Origin: a virus | Lineage: Duplodnaviria > Heunggongvirae > Uroviricota > Caudoviricetes | IMG/VR virus record: IMGVR_UViG_2531839449_000043 | Reading direction: 5' to 3' (one strand) | DNA length: 52,541 bases | In this document: piece after piece, positions 39,401-45,400 of the stretch | Numbering within the stretch: position 1 is the stretch's first letter | Layout of the letters: each line of letters opens with the position of its first letter | Program-made: the position numbers

Positions 39401-42400
39401 GATGGCGGGTTTTTTATTGCCCGTACAGGGCAAAAACCGTAAATTATGCGTGGGTGCCTTTCGGCTGATGGCTGGAGGGTGAACCTGAAGGCCTGATGTG
39501 GAAAGGCCCCGAGTCAACTTAACGTTAACCCGAGGCCCTAACACTTCGTACCTTAAGCAAGTAGAAGGTTAGCGCCTCTCTGTAAAAGGAGTCAAGCGCT
39601 ATGTCGCAAAAATCGCTTATCACCGTCACAATTTGCATGACGGTTATCTTCACCATCTGGATGTTGCACGGTTCACTGTGTGAGTTCCGGCTGAATTTGT
39701 GGGGAGCGGAGTTTGCGGCGTTCTTACAGTGTAAGCAGTAGGAAAACCGCGACGGGGACGAGAGTCCCCGTCAACTGGTTGCTGAGGTTCAGCCGATATG
39801 GCACCCGTTTCAGGTGAGAGAATGAACGATAAAATTCTCTGGTATATGCAGCGTGTTGTGAGAAATTCCCGCAACCCTGAATTTATGAATGAAGTTAAAG
39901 ACGCCTGCCTTAAAAAGCAGGCGTTTTGTTTTGAGGCACCTGATGGCTTTTTGGTGCTGCGTTCTGTGCTCAGTGCTGATGGTATCCCTTATGTTCTGGT
40001 GTTGCTGGGCGTGTGTACGGGGAGTAACAGCGTTGAGCGTTACCTGCCGGAGGTGAAGACATTAACCCATCTGGCTGGCGGACGCTGGGCTGAGTTCCAT
40101 ACGGCAAGGCGGGGATTTATCCGGCTGGGAAAACGACTGGGCTTTGAGCGAATGCCGGATGATGAGGATGGCTTCATGGTGTTCAGGATAGCGGTCTGAC
40201 TGCTACAGTTTTCATCATTGTGTTTAAACCAACATTGTAATTCACATTCTGACCCTGCTCCGGCAGGGTTTTTTGTTATCCAGGGGGCCATTATGGGTGG
40301 AAGTAAAGGCGGTGGTGATACCAAAGTAAAACCAACAGCAGCGCAAATAGCACAGGAAGAAGTGGCCTGGAAAGGGTGGCAGGATTACAAAAATATCCTC
40401 CGCCCGGCTGAAGATAACTTCATGGAAAAGGTCGATGACCTGAACAGTGAGCAGCAGTACGACAATATTGCTGGCACCACAAATCTGGGGTATCAGAAAC
40501 AGTTTGGCGAAGCACGGAAGGAGCTTGCGGGTAATCTTGCTCAGTCCGGCGTTGACCCATCCAGTGGTCGTTTTAATGCGGTAATGAATGCGAACCAGAG
40601 TGACCAGGTAACCGGGCAGATTGACACAACCACACGGGGGCAGGTATCGCAGGCAGATAAGTATGTTGCCGGGCTACAGGATGTTGCTGCTCTCGGTTCT
40701 GGTCAGAAGGCGGATGCGTTACAGAGTTTTAACTCTCTGGCAGACAGCAGTCTGGCAAAAGCTAAATCGGATGCACAGGCGGCGTTTACGAAACAGCAGG
40801 GGCGAGCCTCTCTTGTTGGCGCTGGTCTGGGTGCGGCAGGTGCATATGCGATGCATAAGGCTGGCGGTAGCGGAGGAAGTGGCGGTGCTAAAACACCTGG
40901 CACCGGCGCTAATGCCATTCAGCATCAGGCTCAGAACTGGAGACTGTGATTATGGAGTACGGTAAATACGAAACACTTGCAAGATACGGTTATACCGGAG
41001 CAGCCCGCCCTCAGGGGGACTGGCAGACATCCGCAGCGCTGACCCGCCAGCAATACGACGACTGGCGCACCAGATATTTACCCCGTGTAGCAAGGCTGGC
41101 TGACCTTGGGGAGAACAACAGTCTGATGAATGCACAGCTTGCACGGGTGGGAGGCCTTGCCACTTCCAGTCTCCGTACAGCGCAGATGGCGCAGGATAAC
41201 CAGATGGCGAGATACGGGGTAAACCGCCCGGATAATCCCGACAGTAATACGCTGGGGTTACGTAATGCCCTGGCAATTGCTGGCGCGAAAAATGGTATCC
41301 GTGAAGCCGAACAGGATCGCCAGATGAATATTCTGACGGGGGCTTCTGCACCGGCAAGACAGAAACTGAGTGTTGGCGGCCAACTGGTGGCAGCGTAAGG
41401 GGGCAATATGGGATACGGTTTACTGGATATTGCAAATCAGTCGCGGCGTGAGGCATTACAGGGAATAAGTGACGCAGACAGACGACGTGAAGAAATTGAG
41501 GCTGCGAACAAACAGATGGCGGCGCAACAGAAAGCGCAGAACAAGCAGAATATCGGTACGGGCATTGGTACGGGGGCGGCTATTGGCGCATCCGTTGGTG
41601 GTCCTGTTGGTGCTGTTGCTGGAGCAGTAATTGGCGGCATTGCTGGTTCTTTGTTTTAAGGAGTGGTGAATGAGCGGATTTGCACAGGGGTTACTTGCCG
41701 GATTCAGCACCGTTGACCAGGCAATGACCCGTCGTAAGGAGCTTGGTCTGCGTGAAGCACAGCTTGCCCGGCAACAGAAAAATAACGAGCGCGATTTTGA
41801 GTTTGCGCAGTCTCAGTTTGAACATAATAAAAACGTTGATCAGCGGAACTTTGATTACAGAGCCAAAGTTGACGACCGTAATTATGCACTGAAGGAAAGG
41901 GAGTTTAACGCTAACCAGAATTACCGGAATGCGTCACTGGGTATGGAGCAGCAGCGACTCCAGTTGCAGAAATACAACCAGCGACGGCTTGAGTATAACG
42001 ATATGATTGCCCATAGCCAGCCACTAATGGAAGCGCTTGGAAAAGCAATTGAGGCTGGCGATCAGGAGGCTGCAACGCGTCTGTTCGGGCAGCTGCCAAA
42101 GGGACATCCATTAATTCTTATGTCAAACGAAGGCTATGCAGCGAAAGCGGGTCAGGCCGTGATCAACCTGCAAAAAATCTTTGGTGATAAGCCGGACATG
42201 GCGATCGATTCGCTGAATACCCCGGAAAATCTCGATGTGCTTTCCGGCGTGTTTGCCCCGGAACTACAACAGCGTATTGGCATGCCTGATTCAACCGGGG
42301 ACAAAACGATAAAAGAGGCCAGGATTGGCAGTATCGTACCAGCGCAGCAGGAAGGGTACGTACTTATTGGCCTTGATCTCACATACAGCGATGGCTCCAC

Positions 42401-45400
42401 CGCGCATAAACCTGTAACAGAATACGGCAGTGCGCACCCTGATGATCAAACCGTGCTGGCGATACCCGTTGATAAGGCTATCGCTCAGGTCAGGGATCGC
42501 AGCAAATTTGCAGAGATATCGAAAAATTATGGTTATTTTATGCCGAAGCAGCAGGGACTTTCTCTGAAAGAGCTTCAGAAGGGGGCCAGCAACGTAGCGG
42601 CGGACGCGATCAAGAATGGCGGTAATGCTCAGGCTGCGGTGGATGAATATTATGCTGCGACTGGTTCACAACCGCATCAACAGAAAATTCAGCAACAAAA
42701 ACTTCAGCAACAGGTTATCAACTGGGCGGGAGATGATCCTGATAAGCTGTCATTTGCCAGAAATGTAGCGGCCCGTCAGCCTGAAATGCTGGAACCTCAG
42801 AATCAGAAATTGCTGGAGAACGGGTATGCGAATTTTCTCCGTATTCAAAAGGCCAGGGGGGAACAGGCCAGAGATGAAAGTGCTTCATCTGCATCTCAGT
42901 TTATCCGTGGACTGAAACAGAATTACGCCCAGTAATTCACGATATTCCATTAATACCATTTCCTGATGCCCGGCCATTGTGCCGGGTTTTTTTATGGAGT
43001 CTGTATGGCCTATTCAGAGGAACAGCGTCCTGAGGCGCAACTCGGTAACCAGAATCGTAACAGCCTGAACATTCAGCAACCCGGCGAAACTGACAGCTAT
43101 GAAGCATTTTTCTCTGATCCGAATCGCTGGAAGGATAACAGTACGTCGTTCAGCCTGGGCGATGTATTGCCAACAATGGGTAAAGGTTTCGCCCAGTCCG
43201 TCCGGGGAACAGGGGAAATGGCCCGTGGACTCGGTGATGCGATGATTCAGAGCCCGGTAAAAACAGGGGCGCGTATTTTAAATGAGTTCAGCCGTATGGG
43301 GCTGCCGGGTGTCGCAACTGTGCAGGATATTTTTGCCGGTGGCAGCAGGGGGGCTGATGAGGTCATCGATACCCTGCCTGATGGCAAAAACGCGGTTACT
43401 GATACTGTCGGTAAAGGTCTGAAGGCAACCGGTAAGGCTGTCAGTGATGGTGCCAAAGCCACTGATGAATGGCTGACCGGTAAGATGTCGCCGGGTGCAG
43501 TTCGTGCGCTGAATACGCCGATGACCGAAGGCTATAATGATTCTGCGGTCTGGGTGGCGAAGGGTGTAAACCTGATTGGTGCGCTTGTACCTGATATGGT
43601 TGCTGGCGGTGTGGCTAGAAAGGTGGGTGATGTCACACTGCGAAAAATGCTGACCGCCGGGCTGGAGAAAAAATACATCGCGGCAGGGATGCAGCCGGAA
43701 AGAGCCACGGCACTGGCAGCAGAAGCTGTCGATAAAAAAATGCCGGATTTATTCCAGGCGGGCCTGATCACCCATTCCACTGTAAGTGCACAGGGGCAGA
43801 GTGCAATGGCGGCAGCAGATGCTGTTCTTAATGCTGATTACTCTGAGCTGGCGCAGTCACCGAAATTTCAGCAGACGTTTTTGTCCATTGACGCCGACCC
43901 GCAGCACGCACAGCTTACTGATCGCCAGAAAATGGATCTGGCAAAAGAGCGTGTTGCCGATGAGGTGCGCGCGCAGCTGGCAACCGATCCTGAATTGCTG
44001 GCTGTGAATGCCATGGCGGCAAAACTGGGTGACGCACAACTGTTTAATCTGGTGACACGAGGCACAGCGAAGACCGTTAAAAGCGGCATTGTCAGAAATG
44101 CCACGGAACAGGGGGCGATTAATGCGGCGCAGGGCGGCTATTCACGCTATCAGGAAAACACGGCATTGCGTGAGACCGCCGGAATGGGTGTGTCACCGTG
44201 GGAGGGCGTGGCTGACGCAACGATCGAAGGTGCAGCCTTTGGTGCTGCGATGGGGGCTCCATTCGGTGCGGTTGCCGGATATCGTGGCAGACGTCAGGCC
44301 GCAGAAGAAACCGCCATGCGTGATGCTGAAACCGTGCAGCAGGACGACGCAGCCCCGCAACCAGAATCTGTTGATCCGGTGGCGCAGCAGCGTGAATCCA
44401 TGCAGGGCATGAATCGCGAGCAGCTTCTGGAGCAGTATGCTGATGCGGATATGGCAACAGAGGGTGACGCATCCGCAGCTCATCGCCGGGAAGCTGCCAG
44501 CCAGTTGTTGAATGAACTGGACGAACAGACGAAGCGACAGGCTGTGATGAATGAGCTGAAGGCGAAGCCGCGTTCTGAACTGCTTGAGGAATACCGCAGA
44601 CTCAGCCAGAAAGAGGGGCGCACCGAGACTGAAGAACAACAGTTTCAGGCAATACGAGAAGTCATTCGCCCACAACAGGAAGTGACGCCGGAAGCACAGT
44701 CACAGCCTGAAAATGCGGAGGATGGTAACGGGAGCATTTACCCGACGGTGCGGTTCCGGGACCCGAATGAAGTCCGCATTGAAATTAACGGGAATGGTGC
44801 GTCCAGACCAGCGGAACGCATTGAGAAGGTGCGCCCGGACAACCGTTATTTCACGGATGAGAAAAGCGCCATGGGGAGTGATGTTTTCCGTAATGCCGCC
44901 GCCACCGGCCTGAAACCGTCCGTAGTGAAGAAAGGCGAGAATCAGTATGCCGTTGAAATGGATAATCCTGCGTTCTCTGAAGATGTGGCAACGGAAACCA
45001 TTAACACCCTGGCTGACGGAGAGCGTATTGCTGATGCTGACCCGATGGAGCAGCCCGCGTTCATGCGTGACCCGCGATTCCGTGGTTTCACGGGGGATGA
45101 TACGGAGGTACAGGCCCGCCTTGCCCGTGGCAACGCGCCGACGGCAGAGGAGCTTGTACGTTCACAGATGGCTGAAGGTGATGCCGGTCCGACAGCACAG
45201 GAGTTAACTGAGCGTCCACGCCTGCCCGCTCCCGGCGATATTCATCCCGGACAGGGATATCCGTTACCGGGAGAAGTGGCGCGTACGCCGGATGAAAATC
45301 AGGCCGGACGTGGTGGTCGTTTTACCACAACCGGTGAGGTTAAGGGCCAGAGTTTCCAGAAAGGACAAGCTCCGGCACCGGAAAACGCCGCTGGTCGCCA

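Follow-up and report, generated by a model that had tools for sequence, protein, structure and literature searches.

The four small genes that directly precede the giant open reading frame (ORF) of a Shiga toxin (Stx) phage, here called g1 to g4, probably encode internal or ejection proteins of the virion. They would form a non-homologous set that acts with the giant polyvalent protein at genome delivery, and we put the probability of this reading at about 55%. The genes lie in the window, a stretch of 52,541 nucleotides from IMG/VR record IMGVR_UViG_2531839449_000043. The reading follows from the abundance of the proteins in virions, their absence from the ordered structure, the need for g4 and the giant protein after packaging, the entry-type defect of g1 mutants, the fixed linkage to the giant gene and a helical, zipper-bearing architecture. 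Internal location, ejection, membrane insertion and channel formation are what we infer for these proteins. The initial annotation had already suggested internal or ejection proteins that form a channel for the DNA and the giant protein, a suggestion which the evidence supports in part.

All four genes lie on the plus strand, consecutively and directly upstream of the giant ORF, as the initial annotation of this DNA had described: g1 at 40293-40949 (218 aa; Sp5 ORF76 / ECs1238; phi24B gp51 = vb_24B_44; PHROG 611), g2 at 40952-41398 (148 aa; ORF77 / ECs1239; gp50 = vb_24B_45; PHROG 596), g3 at 41408-41659 (83 aa; ORF78 / ECs1240; vb_24B_46; PHROG 594) and g4 at 41670-42935 (421 aa; ORF79 / ECs1241; gp48 = vb_24B_47). 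The 2.7-kb region is 100% identical to the Stx2a-converting phage Stx2_H27V05_wrbA, and 186 phage records carry it at full length with at least 80% identity; almost all of these belong to phages of Escherichia and Shigella that are Stx-converting or related to such phages. The RefSeq record of phage P13374 numbers these genes ORF74-77, and its next gene, ORF78, encodes an 'LPD5 domain-containing protein' of 2,806 aa. Because of this identity to phage records and the gene match with P13374, the window is, judged by its sequence, the late region of a short-tailed 933W/Sp5/phi24B-type Stx2a prophage (Sepvirinae). Sizes and order agree with Sp5 ORF76-79, as does the size of the giant ORF80 (2,793 aa). 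The g1 protein is 100% identical to its VT2-Sakai counterpart, and the primers of the Sp5 ORF76 deletion map to window positions 40282-40301 and 40938-40957. Identity to phi24B is 99% for g1 and 100% for g2, g3 and g4.

A bioRxiv preprint of 2026 describes cryo-electron microscopy (cryo-EM) and proteomics of phi24B on the same purified sample (10.64898/2026.04.10.717836). The virions were purified on CsCl, in a preparation with about 52,000 full and 36,000 emptied particles, and abundance is expressed as peptide-spectrum matches (PSMs) from gel bands and from a batch digest; all statements on these counts refer to the portion of the proteome table that was covered. Virion mass spectrometry had been proposed as a check in the initial annotation, and these published data detect all four proteins in purified virions, g3 weakly. 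The g4 protein yields 1,634 PSMs, 179 of them in the batch digest, which is the fifth-highest value for a phage protein; its gel peak adjoins the band of the capsid protein, and its start is confirmed by the N-terminal peptide SGFAQGLLAGFSTVDQAMTR, seen without its methionine. For g1 there are 523 PSMs (82 in batch), with a gel peak among the bands of about 23-25 kDa; both g1 and g4 run at full-length size. The g2 protein follows with 129 PSMs (83 in batch). For comparison, the portal reached 101 PSMs in the batch digest, the nozzle 42, the needle 32 and the giant gp47 746; by its PSMs, gp47 ranks second among the phage proteins. The proteins g4, g1 and g2 are thus present in virions at counts at or above roughly the level of the portal.

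The g3 protein, unnamed in the preprint, has 13 PSMs (6 in batch), 12 of them from the one located peptide EALQGISDADR; its N-terminal tryptic peptide GYGLLDIANQSR was not found in the covered part of the table. Low counts are expected here, since the 34-residue tail of g3 lacks lysine and arginine and gives few usable tryptic peptides. A crude copy number, for which the preprint authors quote a factor 1-3 error, can be obtained by dividing batch PSMs by protein length and scaling to 12 portals. This calibration roughly reproduces known numbers (nozzle 6, adaptor-1 13, fibre 22) and gives crude values of about 35 copies of g4, 30 of g1, 50 of g2, at least 6 of g3 and about 20 of the giant protein per virion.

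The density of the phi24B maps is fully assigned to the capsid with its cement and decoration proteins, the portal with two adaptor rings, the nozzle, the needle and six fibres; the authors locate the giant gp47 within the capsid and propose that it is an ejection protein (10.64898/2026.04.10.717836). Neither g1-g4 nor the giant protein appears in these maps, and this fits an internal, disordered location of all five. The main text of the preprint never mentions gp48-gp51. As counted from the labelled rows in the covered part of the supplement, gp48, gp50 and gp51 appear to be among the fifteen 'candidate structural proteins' of its Table 1. The text of a 2025 mass-spectrometry paper on enterohaemorrhagic E. 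coli (EHEC) phages holds no data on g1-g4.

Genetic evidence comes from Mondal et al. (2016), who made in-frame deletions of 43 genes or gene groups of Sp5 (PMC5155283); the mutant phages were grown and tested on the same K-12 strain. Mutants in ORF79 (g4) and ORF80 (the giant gene) formed neither plaques nor lysogens and could be complemented, and the particles made by both deletions held wild-type amounts of DNase-protected DNA in normal heads (PMC5155283). The g4 protein is essential, at a step after DNA packaging. The ORF76 (g1) mutant did form plaques, and lysogens were obtained only from concentrated lysates (PMC5155283), which shows that g1 matters for establishing infection. The deletion analysis by which the initial annotation wished to see its claim judged was therefore already in print. 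It supports the claim in part: g4 is essential and loss of g1 strongly cuts lysogenisation, but no defect is reported for g2 and g3.

To examine the linkage of the block to the giant gene, every ORF of 80 IMG/VR loci, retrieved with the g1 alignment, of Aeromonas phage phiARM81mr and of Vibrio phage D80 was compared with the window proteins. The order nozzle-needle-g0-g1-g2-g3-g4-giant, in which g0 is the gene preceding g1, is kept in 35 of 35 divergent IMG/VR loci and in phiARM81mr. Phage D80 has the same order, with no g0 or g2 match detected there. Identities in the divergent loci are 34-72% for g0, 50-57% for g1, 46-67% for g2, 39-60% for g3 and 23-34% for g4, and the position of g3 between g2 and g4 is exact in nearly all relatives. 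The four genes are real and conserved, and they are syntenic with the giant gene. Homologs of g1 occur in prophages of Salmonella, Citrobacter, Serratia, Yersinia, Pectobacterium, Dickeya, Brenneria and Aeromonas; the g4 family is small, with 66 representatives in a set of 1.84 billion proteins clustered at 50%. Only two features set the Stx phages apart: an insertion between needle and g0 (gp54, lom and a hok-like gene) and a hairpin between g0 and g1. In the annotation of phiARM81mr, the four homologs and the giant carry the label 'virion structural protein' and the g3 homolog the label 'bacteriocin'.

According to the phi24B authors, the closest structural relative of their phage is Ralstonia phage GP4 (10.64898/2026.04.10.717836). 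A 277-aa 'virion-associated' protein of GP4 is a g1 homolog (hhalign probability 94.5%) and ends in a hydrophobic tail that resembles a glycine zipper. Downstream of it follow a 509-aa 'virion-associated' protein and a 3,224-aa 'DarB-like' giant. The 509-aa protein was rejected as a g4 homolog (hhalign probability 3%), as only its position and a similar Gly-rich N-terminus link the two. A relation between the g3 zipper and the C-terminal tail of the g1-like GP4 protein was likewise rejected, the resemblance being compositional only.

The initial annotation had called the four proteins low-complexity and rich in Gly, Ala and Gln. The composition is indeed unusual: Gly, Ala and Gln together make up 39, 33, 45 and 30% of g1, g2, g3 and g4, versus 18-24% in five comparison proteins (portal, capsid, nozzle, needle and terminase). 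Low complexity, on the other hand, describes only the tail of g3 and the C-terminal tail of g1, whereas g1, g2 and g4 are conserved position by position across genera. Of the columns in the g1 alignment, which spans 33 homologs and at least eight genera, 19 are invariant and 30 nearly so, and the alignments of the g2 and g3 families show similar conservation. The Ala/Gly/Gln-rich g1 is predicted to be all-helical and has, near its C-terminus, a conserved Gly/Ala-rich, semi-hydrophobic segment LVGAGLGAAGAY.

In g3 a polar N-terminal helix is followed by a C-terminal glycine zipper (41555-41656, plus strand; residues 50-83, ending in GSLF), which upholds another element of the initial annotation. 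Its eight glycines (G52/56/60/64/68/72/76/80) stand in exact i,i+4 register and form seven consecutive GxxxG motifs over residues 52-80, a register reached in 21 of 100,000 shuffles of the 34-residue tail. Among 12 divergent homologs G52, G56, G68, G72, G76 and S81 are invariant; the N-terminus MGYGLLDIANQ, with its MGYGL start, is conserved as part of the mature family. The best family matches of g3 are glycine-zipper models such as Gly-zipper_YMGG and Gly-zipper_Omp, all of them sub-threshold, and weak matches were also found to the Gly-rich segments of PHROG tape-measure and internal-virion-protein families. With glycine-zipper membrane proteins (PF13441, PF13488 and the YiaD/PdsO-type lipoprotein zippers) g3 shares a textbook (GxxxG)n tail. 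In contrast to them, it scores below the curated cut-offs (25.7 bits versus a gathering threshold of 28.9 for Gly-zipper_YMGG, PF13441; 15.9 versus 25), has no lipoprotein signal, comes from a phage late gene and has a conserved, polar helix at its N-terminus.

The g4 protein starts with a conserved, Gly-rich peptide (G.A.GF..GF). Its AlphaFold2 model, built on a 47-sequence alignment, is confident, with a predicted local distance difference test score (pLDDT) of 85.7 and a predicted template-modelling score (pTM) of 0.52. One continuous helix is predicted for residues 4-129 (126 residues, about 19 nm), followed by a helical region, a small beta domain (213-266) that covers the conserved motif VTY.DGSTA.KPVT, and C-terminal helices; no fold match outside its own family was found in PDB or BFVD. 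For g1 the model shows four long helices at pLDDT 49, too poor for a fold search. Low confidence of monomer models is usual for proteins that fold only in assemblies. In Pfam, NCBIfam and PHROGs the four proteins match families of unknown function only (PHROGs 611, 596, 594 and 601), apart from the sub-threshold matches of g3, and the profiles of g1, g2 and g4 showed no relation to PDB chains. Helical and free of cysteine, with the zipper of g3 and the 126-residue helix of g4, the predicted architecture would be typical of ejection proteins.

Put together, the four proteins would be packed, largely disordered and together with the giant protein, in the head or the tail lumen, would leave the particle at infection, and would help to build or open a path by which the DNA and the giant protein cross the envelope of E. 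coli. The g4 protein may be the essential structural partner of the giant, with a Gly-rich N-terminus and a helix of about 19 nm that would suit an element spanning the periplasm or reaching a membrane. The Gly/Ala-rich, zipper-type segments of g1 and g3 could insert into the membrane and oligomerise, and g2 might serve as an accessory subunit.

Several observations weigh against this proposal. The evidence for a place of g1-g4 inside the capsid and for their ejection is indirect, and the four proteins show no sequence or fold similarity to the ejection proteins gp14/gp15/gp16 of T7, gp52/gp51 of N4 or gp73/gp72 of DEV; a comparison of the g1, g2 and g4 profiles with N4 gp51 and gp52 gave no relation either. 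The maximal Kyte-Doolittle hydropathy of g3 over 19 residues, 1.69, is borderline for a transmembrane helix, and that of g1 (0.82) is below the threshold. The presence of g3 in virions is thinly documented, by 13 PSMs that come mostly from one peptide, in a preparation that also holds the membrane proteins Lom and Bor. ORF77 (g2) and ORF78 (g3) were deleted singly and are not among the mutants with a reported change (PMC5155283). As both genes are dispensable on K-12, an obligatory pore role of the glycine-zipper protein is weakened. Finally, particles of the ORF79 and ORF80 deletions did not bind anti-tail-fibre antibody ('data not shown'), from which the authors concluded a function in 'tail formation' (PMC5155283).

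This conclusion of the Sp5 authors leads to a different view, in which g4 and perhaps g1 build or stabilise the short tail, as plug, chaperone or lumen component, and have no role after ejection. In its favour, the mutant particles package DNA into normal heads and yet are not labelled by anti-fibre antibody. Mutants in the P22 ejection proteins, in comparison, make tailed particles of normal appearance. Residence in the lumen is possible in principle, since the N-terminus of the N4 ejection protein gp52 lies in the adaptor lumen. We nevertheless regard a pure tail function as unlikely. The phi24B maps explain portal, adaptor rings, nozzle, fibres and needle without g1-g4, the estimated tens of copies per virion exceed the need for a plug, and a pure chaperone would not reach such abundance in purified virions; the immuno-electron microscopy result, moreover, is a negative one reported as 'data not shown'. 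Another possibility is modelled on the Dar system of P1, in which loading of the giant DarB into the capsid requires the small head proteins Hdf, DarA, DdrA and Ulx. Here g1-g4 would load, fold or protect the giant protein and be injected with it, without forming a conduit. This would account for the way in which the block and the giant gene strictly co-occur, in a fixed order, in divergent phages, for the LPD and MuF_C domains of the giant, which are typical of packaged and injected polyvalent proteins, for the DarB-like annotation of the GP4 counterpart and for the deletion phenotype common to g4 and the giant. The Dar proteins of P1, however, are dispensable on non-restricting hosts, whereas g4 and the giant are essential although Sp5 was grown and tested on one and the same K-12 strain, and the glycine zipper and the long helix would be left unexplained. 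Loading as the sole function therefore seems distinctly improbable to us; it overlaps the ejection reading, and both roles could coexist.

A last alternative concerns g3 only, which might be a small membrane-active peptide (a bacteriocin-like toxin, an exclusion factor or a lysis accessory) that contaminates virion preparations with vesicles. The phi24B preprint takes this line, going by nothing but the annotation when it discounts 'a homolog of a bacteriocin' as contamination (10.64898/2026.04.10.717836). RefSeq uses the name 'bacteriocin' as well, the Pfam model Bacteriocin_IIc gives a weak match (E 8.8e-4), and the 13 PSMs in the covered part of the table, the co-purification of Lom and Bor and a deletion without reported phenotype are in line with it. 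Yet the Bacteriocin_IIc match is sub-threshold (19.7 versus 27.1 bits) and involves the Gly-rich tail only. The hallmarks of class II bacteriocins, i.e. a match above threshold, a double-glycine leader and neighbouring immunity or export genes, are all lacking in g3, whose neighbours are virion genes. Its fixed position between g2 and g4 and its conserved MGYGL N-terminus also argue for a virion protein, and the low counts are those expected of so few usable peptides. We consider contamination very improbable, and the joined lines of evidence suggest that the preprint discarded a candidate, g3, on its annotation alone.

Since the tests for homology failed, the relation of g1-g4 to ejection proteins is best described as functional analogy, not as family membership. 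Like the ejection genes of T7- and N4-type phages, g1-g4 are found at the far end of the structural block, next to the gene whose product is the largest internal protein. The closest parallel may be the cassette of N4 and DEV (Schitoviridae), which consists of gp52 (150 aa), gp51 (644 aa) and the giant virion RNA polymerase gp50 (3,500 aa), an order paralleled by the g-block. These too are podophages with a T=9 capsid and with small, helical, membrane-active proteins encoded directly before the giant at the end of the structural operon, and the small N4 members, gp51 and gp52, for which planar-bilayer conductance has been recorded, have recently been shown to be membrane-active ejection proteins. 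Their proteins are virion-borne, mostly or wholly missing from the maps and without a compact monomer fold. The Sp5 capsid protein has an N4-type capsid domain (PMC5155283). The differences are that the phage studied here has four small proteins and g0 instead of two, that two of the four are dispensable, and that its giant is a polyvalent LPD/MuF protein and no RNA polymerase.

With gp14/gp15/gp16 of T7, g1-g4 share consecutive late genes of rising size and helical products; the T7 proteins wait in the head and span the envelope once ejected. The largest member of the T7 ejectosome carries enzymatic domains. To gp7/gp20/gp16 of P22 the likeness is one of tens of copies per virion, invisibility in symmetric reconstructions and a requirement after packaging. 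Two points separate them: particles of P22 ejection-protein mutants are tailed and look normal whereas those of the Sp5 ORF79 deletion reportedly lack fibre labelling, and no family match links g1-g4 to the P22 proteins. The P1 Dar proteins (Hdf, DarA, DdrA, Ulx, DarB and DdrB) resemble the present set in that small head proteins are encoded with a giant, multidomain, injected protein; in contrast to them, the giant and g4 are essential here on a non-restricting host. Xanthomonas phage Xacm4-11 was set aside as a comparison, being a T7-like phage without relevance here.

It is conceivable, although in our view somewhat doubtful, that g3, g1 and g4 assemble an entry route for the DNA and the effector of about 310 kDa, and thereby constitute an ejectosome of a third type among podophages, with no evolutionary relation to the sets of T7/N4 and P22. 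If so, it would be used by the Stx lineage and by relatives in Salmonella, Yersinia, Pectobacterium, Aeromonas, Vibrio and Ralstonia. Shiga toxin genes are disseminated within E. coli by short-tailed Stx phages, whose entry machinery would then be a distinct and experimentally tractable system. The genes and phenotypes were already published and the detection in virions is contained in the preprint supplement; no role has been assigned to g1-g4 in the literature searched. What is added here is the joining of the 2016 deletions, the 2026 proteome table and the synteny with the giant gene into a candidate list for the entry machinery. Its conceptual value is moderate, as podophages are expected to carry ejection proteins.

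The gene starts agree in part with the initial annotation. The good Shine-Dalgarno sequences that it reported are present as similar sites 4-9 nt before each ATG (AGGGGG for g1 and g3, GGAG for g2 and AAGGAG for g4), and g1 and g2 are translationally coupled through TGAttATG. The start of g1 at the TTG at 40218, which is the start by the longest-ORF rule, has to be replaced by the ATG at 40293, giving 218 aa, because a hairpin lies within the 75-nt extension and AGGGGG precedes 40293. The 218-aa form is annotated in Sp5, phi24B and P13374, and a virion peptide of phi24B, in the covered part of the table, corresponds to its residues 12-27 and is compatible with this start. The hairpin (stem at 40251-40270, with its U-run to 40276; plus strand) lies between g0 and g1, occurs in the Stx-phage lineage only, and has a folding energy of -16.5 kcal/mol (z -3.46 versus shuffles). 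A second one, between g4 and the giant gene (42968-42987, with seven U to 42994; plus strand), reaches -17.2 kcal/mol (z -3.0 versus shuffles). In many records the giant ORF is annotated from the ATG at 42966 (2,806 aa); the ATG at 43005 (2,793 aa, as in Sp5) is the more likely start, since the second hairpin lies inside the longer version. GGAG is found 5 nt upstream of it.

Both hairpins look like intrinsic terminators, and to this extent a block between two terminators is indeed present. It is not an evolutionary unit bounded by them, as divergent relatives, in which g0 ends about 8 nt before g1 and no hairpin intervenes, keep g0 through the giant gene together. Across the region, terminator-like sites are not enriched (19 found versus 14.9 +/- 4.3 expected). 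In the late region of lambdoid phages the Q-modified RNA polymerase reads through terminators, and it would pass these two as well. By analogy, the flanking hairpins more likely insulate the late genes from adjacent morons expressed in the lysogen than mark the limits of an operon.

The giant gene (43005-51386, plus strand; Sp5 ORF80 / ECs1242; phi24B gp47) encodes a protein of about 310 kDa with four Pfam domains above threshold: LPD38 (162.6 bits), LPD5 (153.4), LPD1 (84.5) and MuF_C (64.2). By this combination of LPD and MuF_C domains it is a large polyvalent protein, a class predicted by Iyer et al. to be packaged and injected with the DNA. At the other end, g0 (39798-40199, plus strand; 133 aa; Sp5 ORF75; phi24B vb_24B_43) is the first gene of the module in the relatives. 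It has no match in Pfam, NCBIfam or a PDB-profile search and no row in the covered portion of the phi24B proteome table, and ORF75 is not among the Sp5 mutants with a defect (PMC5155283). The idea that g0 is a GNAT acyltransferase modifying the small proteins had two sources: the annotation of its positional analog in GP4 as an 'acyl-CoA N-acyltransferase', and the MG- with which g1, g3 and most homologs of g2 begin. It found no support: g0 and ten homologs have no Pfam match, the single GNAT match among 12 proteins scanned (E 0.006) probably belongs to the GP4 protein, and no convincing alignment of the latter with g0 was obtained.

Public labels of three of the small proteins are inconsistent and probably wrong. 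The g1 protein is called 'portal protein' in phiSTEC1589-Stx1c and g3 is called 'bacteriocin' in several RefSeq records. For g4, the phi24B record notes 'similar to putative transcription initiation factor and seryl tRNA synthetase', the preprint supplement has 'Transcription factor?' and one nr entry 'protein phosphatase CheZ'. Where they bear no such misleading names, the four proteins go as 'hypothetical'.

One IMG/VR locus (UViG_2667527919_000010, L068; 9995-12043) fuses the first 37 or so residues of g2 in frame to a g4 without its N-terminal region, with g3 deleted; either the deletion is a natural one or the prophage is defective. Five others, from relatives of the Stx phages (L022, L023, L025, L036 and L049), have about 2 kb of additional DNA between lom and g0, a g0 of 125 aa and a variant g3 of 90 aa (81-82% identity). 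The gap between lom and g0 seems to be an insertion site for cargo. In the window this gap, between lom (38634-39368) and g0, holds a hok/sok-like type I toxin-antitoxin locus (39452-39741), with a Hok-like ORF of 46 aa (39601-39741; 'MokW-like host killing' in P13374) and a sub-threshold Rfam match to sok (39452-39614; 35.6 bits, E 1.7e-5). The '24B_1 microRNA-size RNA' of phi24B (45711-45692, minus strand) corresponds, by coordinate offset, to about 39508-39527 of the window. As these coordinates fall inside the hok/sok-like leader, 24B_1 may be a fragment of a Sok-type antisense RNA.

Farther upstream, a 319-aa ORF (15386-16345) has the size of Stx2 subunit A and a 645-aa ORF (17124-19061) that of the NanS-p esterase, both identified by size and context only. 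The NanS-p esterase of phi24B, gp84, has been reported as a capsid decoration protein (10.64898/2026.04.10.717836).

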